A stretch of DNA of 25,810 nt from a virus (taxonomy: Duplodnaviria; Heunggongvirae; Uroviricota; Caudoviricetes): the IMG/VR virus record IMGVR_UViG_641736224_000035. One strand, 5' to 3'. A model generated the notes under the pieces. It had not been told where the DNA came from, made no database searches, and worked only from the letters and a program-made list of their open reading frames with translations. A program made the position numbers and the translations under genes. This document shows, in pieces, positions 3,647 through 15,358 of the stretch; position 1 is the first letter of the stretch; every line of letters begins with the position of its first letter.

Positions 3647-3925
3647 ATGGCAAAAGTCCTGAACACACACGAACAGGCAGACTTTGAGCGTTTAGCAGCG
3701 TTCTATCCCTACCGCGATGAGCATGGGTTACCAGTACTTGAAGAAAGCCTGAAAGATTACGCAAAGCGTACCAACCAAGCTGTTAACACAGTGAAAAGAC
3801 AGGCTGACAGAGGTTCAATTCCCATCAACCAGGATGAAAAGAACTCAAGACGCACAGTAAATCTCTTCGCTCTTTTCCTGAAAACAATCAGGAGCGCAGA
3901 AAAATACGTGCAGATGACAAAATAA
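3647..3925 (+). CDS. First gene of early operon; Cox/Apl-like excisionase-regulator by position and size (92 aa)
   Basis: ATG 3647 verified; small ORF divergent from the repressor, as for P2 cox / 186 apl. Assignment is positional, not by recognised sequence. Confidence 0.5.
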   Translation: MAKVLNTHEQADFERLAAFYPYRDEHGLPVLEESLKDYAKRTNQAVNTVKRQADRGSIPINQDEKNSRRTVNLFALFLKTIRSAEKYVQMTK

Positions 3926-4587: not shown

Positions 4588-4830
4588 ATGGGCAAAGAAT
4601 ATAAAACTCTCATTAACAAAGCACTTGAGCGTTTTTATTTTCGCTTAAGTGCATCAGGCGCTCATGCTGAACGTGCGGCCCGTGACTCATTGACCAGAGC
4701 AATCCGAAGTCTGTATGACGTGGCTTTTTACGCTGATGATCTGGATGCACTTAACGAACTTTCCGAGCTGATCTGTGCCGCAGAATGCGGGGAACATATT
4801 GAACCGTATAAGCTGGGAAATATCGCATGA
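4588..4830 (+). CDS. Hypothetical early protein (80 aa)
   Basis: ATG at 4588 preceded by AAAGGG; the track start at 4585 is a GTG one codon upstream. Confidence 0.5.
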   Translation: MGKEYKTLINKALERFYFRLSASGAHAERAARDSLTRAIRSLYDVAFYADDLDALNELSELICAAECGEHIEPYKLGNIA

Positions 4831-4940
4831 GTATATTTATCTCATGGCTTGTTCTGATTATTTCGGTGGTCTGCGCCATTGGGATTATGCGAATTATTAA
4901 TTCAGTGAAAAAGATCGAGCGTTTTTTCTCTGATGAATAA
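4827..4940 (+). CDS. Possible small hydrophobic peptide (37 aa), translationally coupled
   Basis: ATGA start/stop overlap with the preceding gene at 4827-4830; translation MSIFISWLVLIISVVCAIGIMRIINSVKKIERFFSDE has one predicted transmembrane helix. Below the ORF-track size cut-off; read manually. Confidence 0.3.
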   Translation: MSIFISWLVLIISVVCAIGIMRIINSVKKIERFFSDE

Positions 4941-6236: not shown

Positions 6237-6358
6237 GAAACCAGAACATGCACACACAAAAAAACCGCTTGCCATGCCGCAATCAGTCAGGTTACATTTC
6301 CGCTGCACCTCATAAAACGGGTGCCGGGATTTCCACCCCGCTGACAACCAAAGCGCAC

Positions 6359-6379
6359 AACCGCGCCAGCGGTTTTTTT
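6359..6379 (+). terminator. Candidate rho-independent terminator inside the early region
   Basis: Stem aaccgc/gcggtt (6359-6364 / 6369-6374, loop gcca) followed by a T7 run to 6379. Confidence 0.55.
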
Positions 6380-6420
6380 GTGCGTACCGTATCGCCACGT
6401 CTTTTTCGCACACGAATTAT

Positions 6421-6499
6421 GGTGGGGCGTACAGGGCCGACTTCGGTCGGGCCGGGTTCTTTGGTTGCCGGTTGTGGAAACCCTGTACGTCTCACCACC
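6421..6499 (+). other. Candidate structured RNA element (nested GC-rich stems with UUCG tetraloop)
   Basis: ggtgg (6421-6425) pairs ccacc (6495-6499); cgtacaggg (6428-6436) pairs ccctgtacg (6481-6489); inner hairpin ccgac-ttcg-gtcgg (6437-6450). Not a tRNA cloverleaf. Function unknown. Confidence 0.3.
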
Positions 6500-6558
6500 C
6501 CGAGTTTTCCACCTCTGGATGGTGAGTTTTCAAAACTTACAACCAAAGAGGCCACCCC

Positions 6559-6864: not shown

Positions 6865-7250
6865 TTGACGCTCATGACTTCACAAGATGGGTGCGCACAC
6901 AGGACACCCGTCTGGCTCCCGTTCTTCAGGGATTATTTGATCTCTACATCCGTGGTCGTGACAACAGAGCACGCACCACAAAACCGGAGAATGCAGACAC
7001 CCTTTATTTCACAGTAGACGACTGCTACCGCGTGGACTTCACACCACACGGGCTGGCGTTGCACTGCCTGACACCACACGGAGAATCACTGCTGGCGTAT
7101 TACGACTCCCCGGCCTCCGTATTTGCGGCAATGCTGGCGCATCGCACTGCTGGCGGGTGTGCCTCGCTGAGTGAATACACCGCTGAATTTAACCGCCTTT
7201 CTGCCCTCTTCTCGCAGGAGTGGCAGCGCGTGACGGGATACCAGCCATGA
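6861..7250 (+). CDS. Hypothetical protein upstream of the replication gene (129 aa)
   Basis: ATG 6861 verified; stop overlaps the A start (ATGA at 7247-7250). Confidence 0.55.
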   Translation: MIDAHDFTRWVRTQDTRLAPVLQGLFDLYIRGRDNRARTTKPENADTLYFTVDDCYRVDFTPHGLALHCLTPHGESLLAYYDSPASVFAAMLAHRTAGGCASLSEYTAEFNRLSALFSQEWQRVTGYQP

Positions 7251-10087
7251 ATGAGTTTGCATGGAGCTGGAATGAACCACGGCCAGCCATTGATCCGGCC
7301 AGATTTACGGAGCACAGGCAGGAAACTGAAACCGACCTGCAACGCGCCATCCGTTACTACCTTGAGGCAGACAAAAAGGCTCTGGAAGAACAGGAAGCGA
7401 AGGAGGAAGCCTTTTTCGCACAATCCACCGTGGGTAAAAAACTCATGGCATCCCTTGAGGAAGCCGGACAGCGTGAAAAGCTGGCACAAAGCATCATCAG
7501 CAAGCGTCAGGCAACAGAACAAGACCCGGTGGCCCGTGCTTTTGCCACACTGAAGGTGCTTCCCGTTTATCTGCGTGAACCTCTGAGCCGCCACCTCTCT
7601 TTCCTGCGCAAAAAACAGGAAGCCGATCGCCAGAAAGGCAAAAAGAGCTGGCAGGCTGAACGCTACGCGCGCGGAACCCTGCGCAAAATATTCGAACGCC
7701 TGGACCGCACCGACCACCGCTGGCTGACACCGGGTTATCGCTCCCTTGCCGGACGCGAACGCCTGGATGATTTGCTTTACCTGCCGCAGCTCAACAAGCA
7801 CCAGATACAGACGCTGGCCACCATGACGGCGGCGATGTTCAGCAGCACCTTCGAAAAACTCTGCGATGGCTTTGGCGCGACCGATGGTGAGCTGACCATG
7901 GATGTAACGCTGAAGGCGTATCAGATGCTGGCCCGCATGGCGTTACACCTGCACGCCATGCCTCCACATTATGACGCACTGACAACAGACAAAGACCGGA
8001 GGAACGAACCGGACACGGAGCTGCTGCCGGGCGCAATCCTTCGCCTGACCTGTGCGGAATGGTGGAAACGCAAACTGTGGCTGTTACGTTGCGAGTGGCG
8101 GGAAGAACAACTCCGCGCCGCCTGTCTGGTTTCCAGAAAAACATCACCCTATCTGAGCCAGGACGCGTTAAGCGAGTTTCGCGCACAGCGCGAGAAAACA
8201 CGCGATTTCCTGAAAAGTTTCATGCTGGAAAATGAAGACGGGTTCACGATTGATCTCGAGACGGTGTATTACGCGGGAGTAAGTAACCCGGTTCACCGTA
8301 AGGCAGAAATGATGGCCACCATGAAGGGGCTGGAACTTCTGGCCGAAGCCCGTGGCGACAGAGCGGTGTTTCTGACTGTCACCTGCCCGTCAAAATACCA
8401 CGCAACAACGGAGAACGGTCATCCGAATCCCAAATGGAACGGGGCCACAATGCGCGACTCCAGCGATTACCTGGTTAACACGTTTTTTGCGGCGGTCCGC
8501 AAAAAACTGAACCGCGACGGCCTGCGCTGGTATGGCATCCGCACGGTGGAGCCTCACCATGACGGCACTGTGCACTGGCATATGATGGTCTTTGCACATC
8601 CGGACGAGATTGAAACCATCGTGTCCCACGTCTGCGATATTGCCATTCAGGAAGACCGCCACGAGCTGGGCGATGACATAACTCCGCGTTTTAAGGCGGA
8701 GTACGTCGACGGCTCAAAAGGCACGCCAACCAGCTACATCGCCACCTACATCGGAAAGAACCTGGACAGCCGCGCCGTGGATGGCATCGACCCGAAAACG
8801 GGCAAGCCACGCGTTGACCACGAAACAGGTAAATCAATGGCCGAGAGCGTGGAGCGCGCCATCGGCTGGGCGCGCCTTCACCGGGTCCGTCAGTTCCAGT
8901 TCTTTGGCATCCCCTCCCGTCAGGTGTGGCGTGAACTGCGCCGCCTTGCCAGCCAGATGGCACGCAATCCGGAAGGCCCGCAACGGCTGAAGGATGACGC
9001 AATGGACGCGGTACTCGCTGCCGCTGATGCCGGATGTTTTGCCACCTACATTGAGAAACAGGGTGGCGTACTTGTTCCACGCAAAGACTACCTGATTCGC
9101 ACCGCCTACGACCTCGCAGATGAGCTGAACGATTACGGTGAACAGAGCGTACAGATTTACGGGATCTGGTCGCCGCTCATTGGGGAGTCTTCCCGCGTAT
9201 GCACGCATCCGGATAACTGGAAGCTGGTAAGACGCAAACCGGAAGCGGAAGACAGCGCCCGCGAAAATGGTTTTGACCTTCAGGGCGGCCCTGCCGCCCC
9301 TTGGACTCGTGGCAATAACTGTCCCCGTGTACAGGAAACAGGCAACAACGGGACAGAACAGCCGGAAGAACGGCCAGCACCGTGGCCGCAGCTTCCTGAC
9401 GGCGTTGAAGTAAATGAATGGATGCGCTCACTGAAACGGCACGAACGCCGGGCGCTGATGCGTTCGCTTCGTGACAAACAGGCAAAAAACAGCAGCGATG
9501 AAATGCAGAACTGGACACAGAGCCGCAAACAGCAGCGGCCTTTGCCTGATAACCACGAGTTACTCGCTAAAGAATGGCGGGAGTCTGCTGAATCTCTCGG
9601 CCTGCATATCGGTGAACAACAGATGCAGCACCTGTTACGGGGCGGCAGTCTGTACGTTGACGGCAGCATCATTGCACCGCAGGGATTTGAAATTGTACGC
9701 AAACCGGATACCCGCCCGGACAGCCGAATCACGCAGCTCTGGCAGCGTCTGAGCCGTAATCATGGCGTAAGCAGCACGGAGATCCGCCATAACCCGGTCG
9801 CCAGCTATCTGGCACAGCTGGGGGCATCAGACCCTGAAGCCGCCGCACGCCTGGCATCCACACTTCAGCAGGACCAGAACACCATGAAAACACCCGTTAC
9901 CGTGCTTTCTGACATGCTGCGCGCCATCCGCGACGCAGAGCACGCACAGAGAATCAGTGAAACCACTGAACGCGCCAGCCGCAAAGCAGACCTGCTGCGG
10001 GGTGGCCTGACCAGTGGAAACAAAAAACAGACAGAAACGGGACTCACGAATCCCGTAAATGAGCAAAAAACGCGCAGCGATATATGA
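7247..10087 (+). CDS. A: Rolling-circle replication initiation endonuclease (P2 gpA family), about 946 aa
   Basis: Central region ...VFLTVTCPSKYH...TVHWHMMVF...TPTSYIATYIGKN... matches the gpA-type HUH/tyrosine nicking motif as remembered. Start taken at ATG 7247; the GTG at 7220 is an alternative. Confidence 0.85.
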   Translation: MNEFAWSWNEPRPAIDPARFTEHRQETETDLQRAIRYYLEADKKALEEQEAKEEAFFAQSTVGKKLMASLEEAGQREKLAQSIISKRQATEQDPVARAFATLKVLPVYLREPLSRHLSFLRKKQEADRQKGKKSWQAERYARGTLRKIFERLDRTDHRWLTPGYRSLAGRERLDDLLYLPQLNKHQIQTLATMTAAMFSSTFEKLCDGFGATDGELTMDVTLKAYQMLARMALHLHAMPPHYDALTTDKDRRNEPDTELLPGAILRLTCAEWWKRKLWLLRCEWREEQLRAACLVSRKTSPYLSQDALSEFRAQREKTRDFLKSFMLENEDGFTIDLETVYYAGVSNPVHRKAEMMATMKGLELLAEARGDRAVFLTVTCPSKYHATTENGHPNPKWNGATMRDSSDYLVNTFFAAVRKKLNRDGLRWYGIRTVEPHHDGTVHWHMMVFAHPDEIETIVSHVCDIAIQEDRHELGDDITPRFKAEYVDGSKGTPTSYIATYIGKNLDSRAVDGIDPKTGKPRVDHETGKSMAESVERAIGWARLHRVRQFQFFGIPSRQVWRELRRLASQMARNPEGPQRLKDDAMDAVLAAADAGCFATYIEKQGGVLVPRKDYLIRTAYDLADELNDYGEQSVQIYGIWSPLIGESSRVCTHPDNWKLVRRKPEAEDSARENGFDLQGGPAAPWTRGNNCPRVQETGNNGTEQPEERPAPWPQLPDGVEVNEWMRSLKRHERRALMRSLRDKQAKNSSDEMQNWTQSRKQQRPLPDNHELLAKEWRESAESLGLHIGEQQMQHLLRGGSLYVDGSIIAPQGFEIVRKPDTRPDSRITQLWQRLSRNHGVSSTEIRHNPVASYLAQLGASDPEAAARLASTLQQDQNTMKTPVTVLSDMLRAIRDAEHAQRISETTERASRKADLLRGGLTSGNKKQTETGLTNPVNEQKTRSDI

Positions 10088-10136
10088 GGCGCGCACAAAA
10101 CAGGCAAAAACGGGATTTCAGAATCCCGTAAACGAT
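10035..10136. repeat. Two 29-bp dyad-containing direct repeats (candidate parC-like centromere/operator)
   Basis: aaacgggactcacgaatcccgtaaatga (10035-10063, inside the last codons of A) and aaacgggatttcagaatcccgtaaacga (10108-10136, intergenic); each holds an inverted repeat acggga...tcccgt. They sit directly upstream of the ParM-like gene. Confidence 0.45.
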
Positions 10137-10163
10137 TAATTAATCAACATAAGGAAAACCGAC

Positions 10164-11123
10164 ATGAAAATTTACATCGACGACGGCTCCACCAACATCA
10201 AGCTGGCATGGACTGAGAACGGCGAACGCCGCAACGCCATCAGCCCGAACAGCTTCAAGTCGGAATGGTCTGCGCCGTTCGGTGGCTCGCAGCCTGCTAA
10301 CTACATGCTTGATGGCGTGCGCTATGGTTTTGATCCGGTCAGCGATCGCTTTGTCCAGACGACCGACACGCAATACCAGTACAGCGATGTGAATGTCATT
10401 GCCATTCATCACGCGCTGGTCAAATCAGACATCACGCCACAGGAAGTGGATGTGGTTGTTACCCTGCCACTGAGCGAATATTTCGACACAAACGCACAGC
10501 CGGACATGGCCAACATCAACCGCAAAAAAGCGAACGTCATGCGCCCGGTGGAGTACCAGAACGGCGAAGCATTCACTATCCGTAACGTACGGGTTATGCC
10601 TGAATCCATTCCGGCTGGCTTTAAAGCACTGGCTGACATGAGTCCGTTTGAATCCCTGCTGATTGTGGATTTGGGCGGAACCACGCTGGATGTGGCAAAG
10701 GTTCAGGGGCAACTGGCAGGTATCAGCCAGGTGTTTTGCGATCCACACGTAGGCGTTTCTCTTATGGCCGATGCCGTACTGTCGGTGATGGCCACTAACG
10801 GTATGCGCACCAGTCACCACATCGCCAATACCATTATCGAACATCGCCATAATGAAGCCTGGCTGCGCCAGCACATCCACAATGACGCGCATTACGCCAG
10901 CCTGATGGCGGTTATTCGTGAAAAGGAAGAAACACTGAAACAACGCGTGATCCGCGCGCTGGCGGTTTTTTCGGGTTACGGGCGGGTGATGGTTGTCGGT
11001 GGCGGGGCGGAGATTGTGGCACCCGCTATCCGCGAAGCCTGCGGAGTTAATGCGACTTTCATCGCGGACGGGGTGCCACAGTTTGCTCTGGTTAATGGGC
11101 TGTACGCAATGGACAAGGAGTAA
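10164..11123 (+). CDS. parM: Actin-like segregation ATPase, ParM/StbA family (319 aa)
   Basis: Recognised blocks shared with plasmid R1 ParM: MKIYIDDGSTNIKLAW, ISPNSFKSEW, YSDVNVIAIHHAL, VMPESIPAGF, SLLIVDLGGTTLDV, GYGRVMVVGGGAEIV, ALVNGLYAM. AAGGA Shine-Dalgarno before ATG 10164. Confidence 0.85.
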   Translation: MKIYIDDGSTNIKLAWTENGERRNAISPNSFKSEWSAPFGGSQPANYMLDGVRYGFDPVSDRFVQTTDTQYQYSDVNVIAIHHALVKSDITPQEVDVVVTLPLSEYFDTNAQPDMANINRKKANVMRPVEYQNGEAFTIRNVRVMPESIPAGFKALADMSPFESLLIVDLGGTTLDVAKVQGQLAGISQVFCDPHVGVSLMADAVLSVMATNGMRTSHHIANTIIEHRHNEAWLRQHIHNDAHYASLMAVIREKEETLKQRVIRALAVFSGYGRVMVVGGGAEIVAPAIREACGVNATFIADGVPQFALVNGLYAMDKE

Positions 11124-11127
11124 ACCA

Positions 11128-11439
11128 ATGACGACACCAACCAGACGGATAAGTTTCTATCTGAAGCCCGCCGCCGTCAAGAACGAAGGAGAAGCATGCG
11201 CCTGGCTGGACAGCCTTACACCAGAAGCCCGCAAAAGCGGCCAACGCGTGGCTTTTCTGGCCGGGCTGGCACTTCTGAAGACGAATCCGGCAGAGGCTTA
11301 CCGACTGGCCGCATGGGCTGATGATGAGATGTTACCTGTGACACAAATCAGCTCAAAAAAGTTTGAAGCACAGTCTGCACCAGTGGCTAAGATAACCAGC
11401 CAGATGGCTGGGAATATCCGGGCGTTATTTCCTGAGTAA
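11128..11439 (+). CDS. parR: ParR-like centromere-binding adaptor (103 aa)
   Basis: Immediately follows parM (AAGGAG Shine-Dalgarno, ATG 11128). N-terminal RISFYLKP...LDSLTPEARKSGQRVAFLAGLAL resembles the remembered ribbon-helix-helix N-terminus of R1 ParR. Start is an internal Met of track ORF 10993..11439. Confidence 0.65.
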   Translation: MTTPTRRISFYLKPAAVKNEGEACAWLDSLTPEARKSGQRVAFLAGLALLKTNPAEAYRLAAWADDEMLPVTQISSKKFEAQSAPVAKITSQMAGNIRALFPE

Positions 11440-11525
11440 AAGCATCTGCGCGAAAAATGCTCACGTTTATAGAGACAGTATCATTCCATTTGGCACACTT
11501 ACTTCAATAATCGATCTGTTAAACA

Positions 11526-11596
11526 AATAGATTGTCTATTATCTATCGATTAAAACGATCAATTATCTTGACAGTAATGTGCCTTTTTGTAAGATC
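11526..11596 (+). promoter_or_regulatory. Candidate sigma70 promoter with upstream dyad operator
   Basis: TTGACA at 11568-11573; TAAGAT at 11590-11595 (16-bp spacer) or AAGATC at 11591-11596 (17-bp spacer); upstream symmetric motifs AATAGA/TCTATT (11526-11531 / 11535-11540) and ATAGAT/ATCTAT (11527-11532 / 11541-11546), flanked by two ATCGAT sites (11510-11515, 11545-11550). Confidence 0.4.
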
Positions 11597-11645
11597 GTTC
11601 GCATTGTGAGCGACAAGATAATTGCGCGGCATTGTCCATGCAAAA

Positions 11646-11673
11646 CGCCCCAATAGCAGCAACTATTGGGGCG
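11646..11673 (+). other. Stable hairpin in the leader of the 89-aa gene
   Basis: Perfect 11-bp inverted repeat cgccccaatag / ctattggggcg with 6-nt loop cagcaa. Confidence 0.4.
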
Positions 11674-11701
11674 TAAAACTCGGTCGGACTCACTTAACCT
11701 G

Positions 11702-11787
11702 ATATGCGTGCCTTCCGAAGTAAATCAAAATGTGCGTCGTATATTTTATTGCTTACACGCACCTCTGTAAAGGCACGCATATTTTTC
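11702..11787 (+). terminator. Candidate attenuator or small-RNA terminator (long-range 13-bp inverted repeat followed by T5)
   Basis: atatgcgtgcctt (11702-11714) is the exact reverse complement of aaggcacgcatat (11770-11782), then ttttt (11783-11787); ends 16 nt before the GTG start at 11804. Confidence 0.3.
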
Positions 11788-11803
11788 CTATGAGGTAAAT
11801 AAA

Positions 11804-12073
11804 GTGCGGGCTAAAACAGGTATTTGCAAGAACCCTCATCGTTATAATCCAACATTTCTGTCTCTCCCTGAATATCAAGGACAAGAAGGTCGGCACAAAT
11901 GCGCTGCCTGTGCTTTTGAGCTAGGCATAAAAGATGCGCTTGAAGGACGCGCTATGGCTCAGAATGATTTAGTTTTAGCTAACATTCCGTTTAGCCAGGC
12001 TGGAACTGTAAGGCACAGAGATGCCTATGAAGCATATGTTCGTGGTTGGCGATTAATAAACAGCAACAATTGA
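11804..12073 (+). CDS. Hypothetical small Cys/His-containing protein (89 aa, GTG start)
   Basis: GTG 11804 with GAGG 8 nt upstream; stop TGA 12071-12073 followed by a strong terminator. Contains C8, H12, H31, C33-x2-C36 (possible zinc-binding). Family not recognised. Confidence 0.5.
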   Translation: MRAKTGICKNPHRYNPTFLSLPEYQGQEGRHKCAACAFELGIKDALEGRAMAQNDLVLANIPFSQAGTVRHRDAYEAYVRGWRLINSNN

Positions 12074-12081
12074 TACTTTTG

Positions 12082-12106
12082 AAGCGCCGATAAGGCGCTT
12101 TTTTTG
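12082..12106 (+). terminator. Rho-independent terminator
   Basis: Stem aagcgcc/ggcgctt (12082-12088 / 12094-12100, loop gataa) followed by a T-run to 12106. Confidence 0.7.
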
Positions 12107-12388
12107 TTTGCACGATAGTGCACAAGTTTGCACAATTTTTTTGAACGACTTTTTGTACTTCCGGCCCGCGTGGTGGCTGGATCCGTCAAGGATCCGTACG
12201 TGCACAAAAAAACGCGTTTTTTCTGCGCGCAAGTGACGGGGGAACAGCCCGCGTTTCAGGGGGGTAAATAGCGTTCCCTTAACGATGTCGCAGCGACACG
12301 ACAGAATGGCCGTATTTCTCACGCTGAGCGTGAAAAATACGTGAGGGATTCTGGTTTGATGGGGTGAAAGGTAAGGCCGTCAAAATCG

Positions 12389-12423
12389 CACTGAGGCGGC
12401 GAGAACATGCAGTCAGCGCAGTG
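12389..12423. other. Candidate cos (cohesive-end) region with dyad symmetry
   Basis: cactg...cagtg dyad around ggcggcgagaacatgcagt; the GGCG(A/G)G-rich core loosely resembles the remembered P2/186 cohesive end, and it lies where cos is expected (between the accessory interval and the 3' end of Q). Low confidence. Confidence 0.3.
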
Positions 12424-12509
12424 GGATTGCGTAAGAATCTGACCGTCGATGATGGCAATAAGCAGGAAAGCGTCGTGAAATTATCTGACTGATACAGGAG
12501 CTGGAGAGT

Positions 12510-12534
12510 CGGGGCATAAATTTTTTATGCCCCG
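12510..12534. other. Hairpin downstream of Q (possible bidirectional terminator)
   Basis: cggggcataaa / tttatgccccg perfect 11-bp inverted repeat with a 3-nt loop; no clean flanking U-run on either strand. Confidence 0.35.
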
Positions 12535-12560
12535 GCGAAGCAGCAGACAAGCGAAGCGCG

Positions 12561-13607
12561 TCAGGATGTGGGCTGGGTATCTAACAGTGCGTAAGGGTTA
12601 AAGCGGATCACCTCTTCGCCAAGCCAGTCATTGATGTGCTTCATGGCCTCCATGACGGGCATCAGCTCGTTAATTGCGTAAACCCGCGCGGCCTTCTCCA
12701 CATCACCAAACGCACTTTTTTCGCCCGGCATCGCCCCCATCAGTTGCGGCGGAACGCGGTGCGCAGCCAGCACATCATCACGGGATGCCGCCTTAACATT
12801 CATGAACTCATCCTTTGCGGTGATCTGCTGGAACGGCAAAATTTGCACCCCCTCTTTGCCCCCGTTGGGCGCATGAATGAGCACGTTTTTAAACGCACCA
12901 CCACCACGTGCCCCCTGTAGCGTTTCTTTCAGGGAGTCCATGCTTTCGCGGTTTACCTGCGCTGCACCGATGTAGATGATGCACCCGGCGTGGGATCCGT
13001 TGTCGTAGTACAGTTTTCTGAACATGTCCGCCGAATGAGAAAGGCTGGCCGAGAGTAATGCGCCAAGATATTCCGGCATGCCGTAGATTTCCTGGTTAAT
13101 ATCCGGATTCATCAGGTGGCACACTTTGCCAGGACGAAACTGAAACGCATCCTTGCCATCCTGCACATACCACCATGATTCAAGATCGCTTCCGCGTCGC
13201 ATGTATTTCGCCAGGGCGTGCCGTAATTTAAGCGGTTCGCCGAGCATATTGCTCCGAAGCTCAAGGAATGCGTTACCGAACACAAACCAGTCCAGCGCCA
13301 GCGCCGAGAAATCCTGCCGGGAAAGCAGCGGGTGCGGAATATAGCAGCCGAGCAATACATTGCGCTTAAAGTAAAGCGCAGACTGATGCCAGGACGTTTG
13401 CCGGGCAGCTCTTGCCAGACCGTACCAGTCCACTGGGGTTTCATACCACCGCCCGTTATCAGCACAGTACATATTGTCCAGCAGGTCATGCCCGGTCAGG
13501 CGATAAGGACCATCAAATGTGAATGCACTGAGCGATGATTCTTTCCTGAGCGCATCAGCGAGATCAATGCGTGAACTCATGCGCACTTTTTTATTTTTTC
13601 TGCTCAT
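12561..13607 (-). CDS. Q: Portal protein (P2 gpQ family)
   Basis: 348-aa ORF adjacent to and co-oriented with the large terminase, overlapping its stop by one nt; sequence recognised as Q-like. ATG 13605-13607 verified. Confidence 0.85.
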   Translation of the reverse strand: MSRKNKKVRMSSRIDLADALRKESSLSAFTFDGPYRLTGHDLLDNMYCADNGRWYETPVDWYGLARAARQTSWHQSALYFKRNVLLGCYIPHPLLSRQDFSALALDWFVFGNAFLELRSNMLGEPLKLRHALAKYMRRGSDLESWWYVQDGKDAFQFRPGKVCHLMNPDINQEIYGMPEYLGALLSASLSHSADMFRKLYYDNGSHAGCIIYIGAAQVNRESMDSLKETLQGARGGGAFKNVLIHAPNGGKEGVQILPFQQITAKDEFMNVKAASRDDVLAAHRVPPQLMGAMPGEKSAFGDVEKAARVYAINELMPVMEAMKHINDWLGEEVIRFNPYALLDTQPTS

Positions 13608-15358
13608 CAGAACTCCATAACCGTGAAACGCTCGTTTTCTCCTTCGCCGCCAATCGGTTCATTAATGACAGCAAGCATGGTTGCCCACGCAAGGTCGCCG
13701 TGGCTGATCCCCCTCGCTCGGTCCGTTTCGTAAGTGATAAAGCCGCCCGGTGTTTTCACCTTACGCACGGCGTTAAAGGCCGCGACCAGCTCGCGTTCGG
13801 CGCGATCGTATTCCCACCGCCCGGCACGCATTATTTGCAGCATTTTCAGTACCAGCGACCGTTTTGATGACAGCGTGAAGGTGTACGGAATAGCAGCAGG
13901 GAAAAACCGTTTCACTATCTGATAAACGGCATCCCCGTGCCCGCCAGTCGCATCAATGCCGATGTGTTCCACGTTGTAGCGACACGTGAACTCTTCAATG
14001 ACTCTGGCCTGTTCTTCAAACTCCAGCCCCTGAACGCGTCGCGTTTCCACCGTTCGAAAACGGCCACCAGGAACAGCCGGAGGAACCACCACGGACACAG
14101 CGCCGCTGTCGCCGTTTCCACTGCTGCCGTTTGCGTCATACCCAATCCATACCGGACGATTCCCCATCGGGCGGGGAGCAAAAGGTTTCCAGTCTTTCCA
14201 GTCGTCGTATCCATCAACACCGCAGCCAATCAGGATATTCAGGTTAAATGCCGATTCCCCTTCGCGGACAAACTCACACATATAGAGATTGCGGAACTCG
14301 TCTTCGGTGTTTTCATCACGAATTTCATCAATATCGGTGTGTTTCCAGCCGTGATTAACCACATCTTCCAGCGTGACAATTTGCCGCCACGTCCGGTCGG
14401 GGCAGATAAGCCCGTTATGCAGCGTTTTCCAGTCCACAGAAAAACGCTGGCGTTTATGCGCGGCCTTTTTCTCGTTCCAGCGGTCGCCGTTCCAATAGAC
14501 GTATGCCTCGTGCGTTTCGGTGGATGGCGTGGAGAAGTAGGTGCGTCGCAGCCCGCTGAGGGTTGCCATAGCGCCAGCCACCTTGCGCAGTTCAGCAAAG
14601 CGACTGACCCAGAAAAATTCATCAAAATAAAAATTGCCTGTGTAGGACTGTGCCGTCGCAGCAGAAGTACCGAGAAAATGCAGTTCTGCGCCGTTGGAGA
14701 GGATGATTTTATCGCCCCCTTTCAGCTCCACATCAACTTCAGCCGCGGCCTTCTGAATAATGCTTTTAAACTGGAACGCCTGACGACGCGACGCAGACAA
14801 AAAAATCTGGTTACGCTGGTAAGGTTGTGCCACATCGTCACGCAGCGCCATCAGCAGTGCTTCCTGTGCAAAATACCAGGTCGCCCCAATCTGTCGGGAT
14901 TTCAGGATCATCCTGTTACGTATCCCGGCTTCACTGCAAAGGGTCAGGGAGTCAAACCAGCCCCGCTGATGCCACTCCAGCCTGCTGATGATTTTTTCCC
15001 GCAGTGCGGCAATCTGCTCCGGCGTGAAATGATTTTTAAGTTTTTTCGCCCGGCCTTTCTTTCCTGTGGCCGTCGCATCCGGCTGGCCATCATGCAGTTT
15101 TTTAAGCTGCCGGGTCAGCAGGTCTATTTCCTTAAAGTCACCACCTGTTTTATTCTGTTTTTCAGTAAGCTGGATGAGGCGCGCATCGATGGACTGCGTG
15201 ACACGCTGCACGGGTGGCGTTTCATCCCACTGGTCGCGTTTTTTCCACGCATAAATCGTGTTCGGGTTTATTCCCATCAGACGTGATATTTCTGCGGGCG
15301 GATAACCCTGCCAGTAAAGTTGCCGCGCACGCTGGCGCACAAAAGCGTCCTGAATCAT
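13607..15358 (-). CDS. P: Terminase large (ATPase) subunit (P2 gpP family)
   Basis: 583-aa ORF, P2 P-like length and sequence as remembered; ATG 15356-15358 verified; divergent from O. Confidence 0.88.
   Translation of the reverse strand: MIQDAFVRQRARQLYWQGYPPAEISRLMGINPNTIYAWKKRDQWDETPPVQRVTQSIDARLIQLTEKQNKTGGDFKEIDLLTRQLKKLHDGQPDATATGKKGRAKKLKNHFTPEQIAALREKIISRLEWHQRGWFDSLTLCSEAGIRNRMILKSRQIGATWYFAQEALLMALRDDVAQPYQRNQIFLSASRRQAFQFKSIIQKAAAEVDVELKGGDKIILSNGAELHFLGTSAATAQSYTGNFYFDEFFWVSRFAELRKVAGAMATLSGLRRTYFSTPSTETHEAYVYWNGDRWNEKKAAHKRQRFSVDWKTLHNGLICPDRTWRQIVTLEDVVNHGWKHTDIDEIRDENTEDEFRNLYMCEFVREGESAFNLNILIGCGVDGYDDWKDWKPFAPRPMGNRPVWIGYDANGSSGNGDSGAVSVVVPPAVPGGRFRTVETRRVQGLEFEEQARVIEEFTCRYNVEHIGIDATGGHGDAVYQIVKRFFPAAIPYTFTLSSKRSLVLKMLQIMRAGRWEYDRAERELVAAFNAVRKVKTPGGFITYETDRARGISHGDLAWATMLAVINEPIGGEGENERFTVMEF

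Follow-up and report, generated by a model that had tools for sequence, protein, structure and literature searches.

A mobile prophage cassette with a conserved structured leader, a predicted cis-antisense RNA and a small zinc-type protein whose relatives accompany GATC methylation systems

The Cassette and Its Elements

The DNA analysed here (referred to as the window) is a stretch of 25,810 nucleotides from the virus record IMGVR_UViG_641736224_000035 and represents part of a P2-like (Xuanwuvirus) Escherichia coli prophage. Between its replication and partition genes (stbAB) and the cos/portal region, the window contains a cassette of 671 bases, which had been described from the nucleotide letters alone (in the following, the initial annotation) as an autonomous unit consisting of a promoter, a heavily structured leader, an open reading frame (ORF) for a protein of 89 amino acids, and an intrinsic terminator. 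All of these elements were found in the sequence, with small corrections of their coordinates (Table 1). The GTG-initiated ORF and the classic terminator were confirmed. The perfect hairpin of the leader, given as 11 bp, has 12 bp, and the 13-bp long-range inverted repeat exists but lies one base to the left of its implied position, with the T's that follow it ending at 11786. The analyses reported below are best explained, with a probability of roughly 0.6, by a moron that carries an antisense-controlled leader and encodes a zinc-type protein linked to GATC sequences.

Table 1. Features of the cassette and of the flanking prophage genes (positions refer to the window).
Feature	Position	Strand	Remarks
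Operator-like imperfect palindrome	11506-11566		Upstream of the −35; contains the ATAGA/TCTAT dyads and two GATC sites
ATAGA/TCTAT dyads	11521-11546		Inside the larger imperfect palindrome
GATC sites in the palindrome	11513-11516 and 11557-11560		
Third GATC site	11593-11596		Overlaps the sense −10 (TAAGATC)
Sense sigma-70 promoter	11568-11595	+	TTGACA 11568-11573, 16-nt spacer, TAAGAT 11590-11595; from scan
Structured 5′ leader	11602-11803	+	About 200 nt
Predicted cis-antisense RNA	11637-11737	−	About 100 nt; inferred from promoter and terminator
Hairpin P1	11645-11656 with 11663-11674		12 bp; predicted antisense terminator
Long-range helix P2	11702-11714 with 11770-11782	+	13-bp arms; structure of the sense RNA
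Inner hairpin	11732-11737 with 11757-11762	+	Enclosed by P2
Antisense promoter	11743-11771	−	−35 TTTACA (11771 to 11766), 17-nt spacer, −10 TAAAAT (11748 to 11743); from scan
Shine-Dalgarno sequence GAGGT	11792-11796	+	7 nt ahead of the GTG
Gene of the 89-amino acid CHCC zinc-type protein	11804-12073	+	GTG start
Intrinsic terminator	12081-12101, T-run to 12108	+	From scan; closes the cassette
Gene A replication protein	7220-10087	+	
StbA/ParM	10164-11123	+	
StbB partition protein	11128-11439	+	PF10784
Portal gene	12561-13607	Opposite to cassette	
Large terminase	13607-15358	Opposite to cassette	

Distribution and Mobility

The site between these genes is a variable cargo hotspot of P2-like phages, about a quarter of which possess a partition system (PMC9122126). 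The StbAB-carrying Xuanwuviruses P88, vB_EcoM-705R2, and Shae_phiSM contain other cargo at the same site. The sequence of the cassette is 98–99% identical in two Xuanwuvirus (P88-like) phage records, and at an identity of at least 95% it was detected in 166 of 5,426 complete E. coli genomes (about 3%, O157 and O111 strains among them), always on the chromosome; the copy of E. coli 300709 is 100% identical. Overall, the stand-alone copies with a long leader fall into six diverged lineages, which share protein identities of 50–63% and comprise two E. coli types, Providencia, Proteus, Gilliamella, and a Pantoea-like group. Their locations vary: the E. coli copies have stbAB on one side and cos on the other, those of Providencia and Proteus are inserted in lambdoid prophages between the Q antiterminator gene and holin/Rz with the cassette on the opposite strand, the Pantoea-type copies adjoin umuDC-like genes, and the Gilliamella copies are close to a gene for a CI-like repressor. 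A GC hairpin and T-run follow the stop codon in 13 of the 15 readable loci. Promoter, leader, ORF, and terminator thus travel together in six lineages of unrelated prophages, and this joint movement shows that the prophage cargo in this segment is self-contained and spreads horizontally as a unit. It displays both hallmarks of a moron, namely a promoter and terminator of its own, and a patchy presence at varied positions in unrelated phages (P2-like, lambdoid, and other prophages). In this respect, the initial annotation, which had regarded the unit as autonomous and as a typical moron, was correct.

Several individual copies show peculiarities. In E. coli CH4793 (NZ_CM166350.1, 1996361-1997808), an IS1-family element is inserted within the cassette. 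A representative of the second E. coli type (L003) has an additional ORF of 95 amino acids without Pfam match (4626-4913) directly after the small gene and a G8...C9 inverted repeat just past stbB (3889-3914); an Ogr/Delta-like gene is located near the cassette in this type. In phage 503458 (L002, NC_049341.1), the portal, terminase, gene A, and small ORF are all in pieces. This record looks like an error-rich assembly, and its split ORF is no evidence of a pseudogene; it was left uncounted because the record is frameshifted throughout.

A Conserved Leader RNA

Transcription from the sense promoter would start near positions 11602–11603. The folding energy of the leader (11602–11815) is −68.9 kcal/mol as compared to −52.1 ± 4.1 kcal/mol for dinucleotide-shuffled sequences (z = −4.07), none of 200 shuffles folded as well, and the leader thus is heavily structured, as had been proposed. 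Helix P2 closes a branched interior of about 55 nt, its base is A-U rich, and it is followed by four or five T's. The Shine-Dalgarno sequence is partly accessible in the predicted ensembles (0.49 unpaired).

The leaders of the six lineages share little sequence and one plan, which consists of a 5′ hairpin or stem, P1, P2, and a ribosome-binding site in or next to the last hairpin. In the Pantoea-type leaders, this last hairpin contains the ribosome-binding site itself. RNAalifold did not recover any structure from a plain MAFFT alignment of all lineages because this alignment was not structure-aware, a problem that was solved by seeding a covariance model on a single lineage. The model seeded solely on Pantoea-type sequences detected the leaders of Providencia, the second E. 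coli type, and Gilliamella (expectation values, E, from 1e-5 to 7e-3), in full length, at the correct place, and on the correct strand. Another model, R2, which was built without any E. coli type-1 or Proteus sequence, also found the Proteus leaders, and its best match in the whole window was a full-length hit at 11634-11804 on the plus strand (24.3 bits, roughly calibrated E 0.0047). In an alignment of the leaders (A8), 93.9% of the cells were paired as compared to 73.8% in column shuffles and 31–46% in slid-partner controls, and 25 of the 34 base pairs had compensatory changes on both sides, although these pair counts are generous given that the alignment was fitted to the model and the sequences are related. 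The slid controls argue strongly for a real leader structure. P1 forms a hairpin in all lineages, with a hypervariable and covarying stem (double changes in five of seven pairs), and the P2 equivalents of the other lineages have compensatory changes in 18 of 24 pairs, with 95.7% of the cells paired. Both the covariance models and the compensatory changes thus speak for conservation of the leader structures.

Helix P2 has several U-G pairs that are possible on the sense strand only, and in Gilliamella, Providencia (L123), and Proteus the antisense strand is the poorer folder of the two. These features show that selection on the structure operates in the mRNA. Within the Pantoea group, the P2 region is 80–99% identical (at least 90% in six of the seven pairs compared), and the conserved pairs include ORFs with saturated synonymous sites and up to 24% non-synonymous differences. 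Judged by these identities, the strongest constraint in the cassette acts on its non-coding part. No Rfam family reached its gathering threshold in the cassette (best score 22 bits, thresholds 43–45), and no Rfam riboswitch matched the leader. On the basis of these comparisons, the leader is a divergent member of a conserved leader RNA family absent from Rfam.

The Antisense Promoter and a Predicted cis-Antisense RNA

The most rigidly conserved sequence inside P2 belongs to the minus strand. In 22 of 22 leaders, representing all six lineages, this strand contains TTTAC(A/T) and TAnnnT separated by exactly 17 nt, whereas the spacer sequences differ. The invariant columns inside P2 in the alignment of these 22 sequences (A4) are 11706 and 11711 in the 5′ arm, 11743, 11747, and 11748, which correspond to the T, A, and T of the minus-strand −10, and 11767-11772, which correspond to the −35. 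Transcription initiated at about 11737 would run into P1 and a U-run. We conclude that the cassette very probably produces a cis-antisense RNA, which would pair with the leader over the stretch between P1 and the 5′ arm of P2, both included; its predicted length is 69–99 nt in all lineages. On the minus strand P1 is followed by UUUUGCAU in the window and by a T-run (a U-run in the RNA) in every lineage, and its stem is hypervariable yet always paired, as is typical of terminators. The only near-matches of P1 in Rfam, again on the minus strand, were the terminator parts of ctRNA_pGA1 and sar (E about 0.1, not significant). The “perfect hairpin” most likely is the terminator of this roughly 100-nt RNA. 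The initial annotation had anticipated an RNA component, for which a minus-strand cis-antisense RNA is a more likely candidate than the attenuator-like leader or separate small RNA named there.

The predicted antisense RNA does not overlap the ribosome-binding site. Masking of the stretch that it would cover lowered the predicted accessibility of the Shine-Dalgarno sequence from 0.49 to 0.42 in the window, and a modest drop was obtained for all nine non-Pantoea leaders tested. The Pantoea group was not affected, as its ribosome-binding site already resides in a hairpin. Only stand-alone prophage copies of the gene were seen to contain the antisense unit.

The Sense Promoter and Its GATC Sites

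A promoter scan of the region found two promoter-like sites where 1.8 are expected by chance, and the promoters were therefore judged by their conservation in homologous loci. Such conservation is seen for the near-consensus −35 and the −10 that had been noted initially: the TTGA of the sense −35 and one A of the −10 are invariant in alignment A4, and the dyad block, promoter, and first hairpin are about 75% identical in the second E. coli cassette type. The dyad block is absent 3′ of stbB in P88, 705R2, and Shae_phiSM, which makes it a component of the cassette rather than of the partition system.

All six lineages have a nearly invariant GATC site that precedes the sense −35 by 8–10 bases and that is part of the palindrome TAAGCTGATCTTTTTA in Gilliamella and Pantoea. 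The GATC overlapping the sense −10 is restricted to the E. coli types, and in four lineages GATC sites occur within the spacer of the antisense promoter or at its transcription start. Near the copies in restriction-modification loci, a TAAGnnGATC-type motif occurred at chance level (37 observed, 35 expected). The conserved positions of the GATC sites, in combination with the gene context of the protein (see below), suggest the hypothesis that Dam methylation, the small protein, or both act on the promoters.

The Small Protein and Its Family

The protein of 89 amino acids is hydrophilic and mildly basic and contains the conserved residues C8, H12, R30, H31, C33, C36, S64, Q65, R70, and H71. In an alignment of 37 sequences, C8, H12, R30, G41, Q65, R70, and H71 are invariant, and H31, C33, C36, S64, and A66 are conserved at a level of at least 90%. 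The arrangement C-x3-H ... C-x2-C, located where a helix begins, resembles a site for zinc. An internal repeat reads LPxxQGxxGRHKCAxCAYxxG and then LPxSQAGxxRHKxxxxAYxxGY, and the motif proposed for the family, C-x3-H ... (G)RHKC-x2-CAY followed by a second SQAG-x2-RH repeat, was found. The AlphaFold model (predicted local distance difference test score 92.5) consists of two beta-beta-alpha-like units. The reading frame is intact in every copy examined (more than 70), and the ratio of non-synonymous to synonymous substitution rates (dN/dS) is 0.02–0.14 wherever synonymous sites are unsaturated. The ORF is a real gene under strong purifying selection. The earlier proposal that its cysteine and histidine residues are arranged as in a small zinc-binding module agrees with the conservation of a zinc-type small protein seen in the alignment and in the dN/dS values.

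The protein belongs to an unnamed PHROGs family (phrog_3941, E 9e-49). A HMMER scan yielded 173 family clusters at 50% identity, and a profile search yielded 1,597 clusters at 90% identity, essentially all of them unnamed proteins of 80–90 amino acids; the stand-alone members have 80–92 amino acids, and the family is spread far beyond phages. No match was obtained in Pfam, NCBIfam, PADLOC, or the PDB, and a search of PADLOC-DB 2.0 returned no family at E up to 0.1. Helix-turn-helix families were not matched by the window protein at E up to 0.1, nor by 43 family members at E up to 1. Literature searches covering the hairpin sequence, Dam-, antisense-, or prophage-related small proteins, and DpnII accessory proteins retrieved no description of the leader RNA or the protein from the library consulted.

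Two known families of small proteins were considered and rejected. Membership in the Ogr/Delta family (PF04606) is contradicted by the lack of a Pfam match and by the putative ligands C8, H12, C33, and C36, which differ from the pattern C-x2-C ... C-x4-C; a BLASTP comparison with a P2 Ogr sequence, a weak test, found no similarity. The ribosome modulation factor (RMF; PF04957) gave weak matches to 10 of 43 members (best E 0.0016) and none to the window protein, and the similarity is insignificant (hhalign probability 6.9%).

The small gene is often unannotated in RefSeq: about half of the genomes listed have “none” as the annotation at the matching position. The homolog of the second E. coli type (L003, 4281-4559) is likewise unannotated, and routine annotation misses the gene.

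Genomic Context of the Relatives

The neighborhood of the gene was analysed in 80 homologous loci from many phyla, with one genome per species and with the neighboring genes clustered. A D12-class Dam-like adenine methyltransferase is encoded within 3.5 kb in 46 of these loci, a DpnII endonuclease in 32, and a second, N6_N4-type methyltransferase in 35. The recurrent gene orders were M-R-M-small and M-small-R-M, and others combined a methyltransferase with a DUF6996/6997/7226 protein or a PDDEXK_11 nuclease, the Dam-like methyltransferase being the constant partner across operon types. The small gene lies just upstream of the DpnII gene in 17 loci. Many of the neighboring methyltransferases have about 355 amino acids as compared to about 280 for the shorter Dam-like ones, and the one methyltransferase that was scanned carries its own N-terminal helix-turn-helix.

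The module also occurs fused to DndB (DGQHR), to WYL, and most often to nucleases. Ten two-copy proteins were sampled, six of which end in NOV_C and three in HNH. For the nuclease fusions, five contigs had readable flanks, and a sixth was too short to judge. A D12 methyltransferase or MutH is encoded in four of the five loci. Where it is a methyltransferase, as in three of these loci, its gene directly adjoins that of the fusion: the fusion gene is convergent with D12 and N6_N4 methyltransferase genes (P0104), follows D12 and PDDEXK_11 genes (P0076), or overlaps the stop codon of the D12 methyltransferase gene (P0146). The fourth adjoins MutH and DndB (P0053), and the fifth adjoins DUF3644. 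From these tandem copies, fused to nucleases and located beside Dam-like methyltransferases or MutH, we infer a module for the recognition of GATC in DNA, and the tandem-module nucleases look like uncharacterised GATC restriction endonucleases. The combination of a reader domain with a nuclease is an established design of DpnI-like enzymes that sense methylated GATC, among them winged-helix fusions (PMC11037411).

Metagenome contigs (L169-L172, L176, and L178) encode two zinc units joined to a NOV_C or HNH nuclease beside or overlapping Dam-like D12 genes. In Bacteroidales (L075-L080), an operon contains, in this order, the genes of a Dam-like methyltransferase, a DUF6996/DUF6997/DUF7226 protein of 425 amino acids, and the small zinc protein, and in five of the six loci it is preceded by a homolog of the Mob_Pre relaxase (checked against Pfam in L075). 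The 425-amino acid protein is probably the nuclease of a mobilisable restriction-modification unit.

Proposed Mechanism and Alternative Explanations

According to the explanation that we favor, the sigma-70 promoter with its GATC sites would give rise to an mRNA with a folded leader of about 200 nt, and the promoter inside P2 to an opposite-strand cis-antisense RNA of about 100 nt that would end at the GC hairpin 11645-11674. By base-pairing to the leader in its 5′ half, this RNA would probably reduce the output of protein. Possible routes are a refolding that buries the ribosome-binding site, duplex-directed cleavage, and collision of polymerases from the convergent promoters, the latter two being just as possible as the first. 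The balance would likely be tuned by Dam methylation at the GATC sites in the promoters. We consider this combination of a GATC-bearing promoter, a folded leader, a cis-antisense RNA that lowers expression, and tuning by Dam quite probable.

With regard to the protein, the position of its relatives as accessory genes of Dam/DpnII systems, and of its tandem copies as the N-terminal half of nucleases, led us to propose a pseudo-dimeric DNA-binding module that would read GATC, most likely in a methylation-sensitive manner. This assignment is tentative, and its odds are somewhat below even. The two half-units of the stand-alone protein would form a pseudo-dimer suited to a palindrome. The prophage might benefit from self-regulation, from the exclusion of incoming DNA that is under-methylated, or from a shielding of GATC sites. 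A broader and decidedly speculative version of the model, which is more probably wrong than right, regards the CHCC unit of about 40 residues (C-x3-H ... LPxSQGGxGRHKCxxCAYxxG) as a new adenine-methylation-sensitive GATC reader with three uses: in tandem with NOV_C or HNH, where the units would be the recognition half of new GATC restriction nucleases; alone in Dam/DpnII-type systems; and alone in the prophages of Dam-positive hosts. In these prophages, the Dam-sensitive promoter pair and the cis-antisense RNA would make the unit a switch that signals the presence of under-methylated DNA or acts upon it, for instance when a phage genome enters the cell or replicates rapidly.

A number of observations weigh against the favored explanation. 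The case for DNA binding is built solely on the neighboring genes and the domain fusions, the predicted fold has no structural match to corroborate it, and the protein could instead bind the methyltransferase, the nuclease, or RNA. The cis-antisense RNA is a sequence-based prediction; its U-tract is weak in several lineages (UUCCCUAU), which makes termination uncertain there, and the predicted effect of masking on the ribosome-binding site is small and nil in the Pantoea group. The copies in restriction-modification operons lack such a leader. As to the leader family, the Pantoea-only model did not detect the window leader at E below 1 (E 1.7), the match of model R2 to it is weak, and the pairing statistics of alignment A8 are subject to the reservation made above. 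Finally, GATC sites are missing from the antisense promoter of the E. coli lineages, and the enrichment of GATC over background is only about three-fold, albeit at conserved positions.

Other explanations were weighed against the same data. A type I toxin-antitoxin or abortive-infection module, in which the 89-amino acid protein is a toxin and the antisense RNA an antitoxin that blocks its translation until infection or loss of the element, appears unlikely. Its layout would fit, as the small ORF is preceded by a long, folded leader within which an antisense promoter is conserved, and the control is elaborate and strongly conserved, the leader being conserved even beyond synonymous sites; moreover, the location is a defence hotspot (PMC9122126). 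However, the product is a hydrophilic, mildly basic, zinc-type protein and not a short membrane peptide, it matched no PADLOC model, and the predicted antisense RNA misses the ribosome-binding site. Most relatives are located in restriction-modification operons without the leader and antisense unit, which would be odd for a toxin. The toxin-antitoxin or abortive-infection role contemplated in the initial annotation thus lacks support, given the nature of the product, the PADLOC result, and the occurrence of its relatives in GATC restriction-modification loci.

A similarly low probability is assigned to the possibility that the protein binds a Dam-family methyltransferase or GATC nuclease as a modulator or anti-restriction factor, or else RNA including its own leader, with the minus-strand promoter being secondary. 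In its favor, the common neighbor of the family is a Dam-like methyltransferase and no single nuclease, all hosts of the phage-type cassette are Dam-positive gammaproteobacteria, and 10 of 43 members have a weak RMF-like helix motif. On the other side, the RMF similarity is insignificant (hhalign probability 7%), and in the NOV_C and HNH fusions beside methyltransferases the tandem copies occupy the place of the DNA-recognition half of a nuclease, the usual signature of DNA targeting (PMC11037411).

The chances are slimmer still for an attenuator, or for a sense small RNA that would have its 3′ end in the T-run near 11786 and a length of about 185 nt, with the protein being made by read-through. 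Such an element had been suspected to end at about 11787. It is favored by the perfect 13-bp helix with its four or five T's in the window, by a comparable helix of the second E. coli type that precedes ATTTTATT, and by the fact that in several lineages the sense strand is the one that folds better. Yet the T-run is not conserved and is missing from the Gilliamella leaders, the last hairpin of the Pantoea-type leaders contains the ribosome-binding site itself, and the branched interior of about 55 nt and the A-U-rich base of P2 are poorly suited to intrinsic termination. In addition, the terminator scan did not call P2 with its T-run, and no alternative antiterminator pairing was found. A role of the dyad/GATC block and promoter as the StbA/StbB centromere (parC), with the small gene as part of a partition module, was rejected as very improbable, since the location directly downstream of stbB in both E. 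coli cassette types and the 13-nt sequence AAACGAT(T/C)AATTA shared between the regions upstream of stbA (10130-10142) and of the cassette −35 (11553-11565), a match at chance level (E 4.4), are outweighed by P88, vB_EcoM-705R2, and Shae_phiSM, which have stbAB without the dyad block, and by phages without stbAB that carry a cassette with a homologous promoter core.

Comparison with Known Systems

By analogy, the cassette would work most like the transposase control of IS10 and like type I toxin-antitoxin loci, although its product does not resemble a toxin. In IS10, the Dam-sensitive transposase promoter pIN has a GATC in its −10, and expression is controlled by the antisense RNA-OUT. Common to both are the GATC overlapping the sense −10 (TAAGATC) and, as predictions in the case of the cassette, a convergent internal promoter with a short antisense RNA directed against the 5′ part of the mRNA and the low expression of a protein acting on DNA. 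The cassette, which is known from sequence alone, differs in that the overlap lies inside a leader of about 200 nt and leaves the start codon uncovered, that the GATC at the −10 is confined to the E. coli lineages, and that the product is no transposase. With hok/sok-type loci the cassette shares a long folded leader with long-range pairing, a conserved internal promoter for a cis-antisense RNA (predicted here), a small ORF, and the association with mobile elements, but its product is a hydrophilic zinc-type protein of 80–92 amino acids with relatives in restriction-modification operons, and there is no overlapping reading frame such as mok.

Antisense RNAs and convergent promoters also time expression in restriction-modification loci, as in EcoRI and Eco29kI (PMC12707154). 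The small gene upstream of DpnII in 17 loci occupies the usual place of a C gene. C proteins are helix-turn-helix proteins, however, whereas the present family has no match to such domains and a different predicted fold, many of the neighboring methyltransferases are of the long type, the scanned one with its own helix-turn-helix, and the antisense unit is limited to the stand-alone prophage copies. DpnI-type readers, SeqA, and MutH are similar with respect to a small DNA-reading module (a proposed one in the present family), its combination with an HNH or PD-(D/E)XK-type nuclease, and the tie to Dam-type methylation, and MutH itself neighbors one locus of the family. The differences to the DpnI type are the zinc-type fold, without a winged helix or a PDB match, and the specificity, as the fusion nuclease would read unmethylated GATC if it is the restriction enzyme of the methyltransferase. 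P22 sar/ant and P1/P7 c4 are further cases of a short prophage antisense RNA directed against a small regulatory protein, and a C4-type RNA is present in the window; the cassette has no significant match to these RNAs (22 bits, threshold 43), and its architecture and target gene differ. The Ogr/Delta late-gene activators, too, are small cysteine-containing zinc proteins of P2-like phages, but the ligand pattern of the present protein is C-x3-H ... C-x2-C, and its family extends far beyond phages.

If the favored explanation is true, the cassette contributes a structured leader with a cis-antisense RNA that is absent from Rfam, surpasses the downstream gene in conservation, and is exchanged among temperate phages that are otherwise unrelated. 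The protein would represent a large unnamed family (about 1,600 clusters at 90% identity) that has no Pfam model or structural relative and whose contexts point to GATC/Dam biology, and the tandem modules with NOV_C or HNH nucleases would be candidates for new GATC restriction enzymes. The timing of replication, mismatch repair, phase variation, and many functions of phages are under the control of GATC methylation. Another class of GATC readers, should it exist, would offer a handle on these processes and possibly a tool. In addition, the P2 hotspot in which the cassette resides has more than once yielded defence systems among its unannotated genes.

Other Features of the Prophage Region

Two known RNAs, the only ones in the window to do so, scored above their Rfam thresholds in the early region of the prophage, namely a C4 antisense RNA (6415-6502, plus strand, 82 bits) and, directly upstream of it, an isrK-type RNA (6305-6379, plus strand, 64 bits). 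The gene A protein has 955 amino acids, of which the Phage_GPA domain spans only residues 194–518, leaving a long C-terminal part without Pfam match, and stbA follows gene A after only 77 nt. Downstream of the cassette terminator, a second terminator-like hairpin with a T-run is located at 12118-12133 (plus strand). It lies at the edge of a non-coding stretch of about 450 nt (12107-12560) that is located ahead of the portal gene and presumably holds cos.

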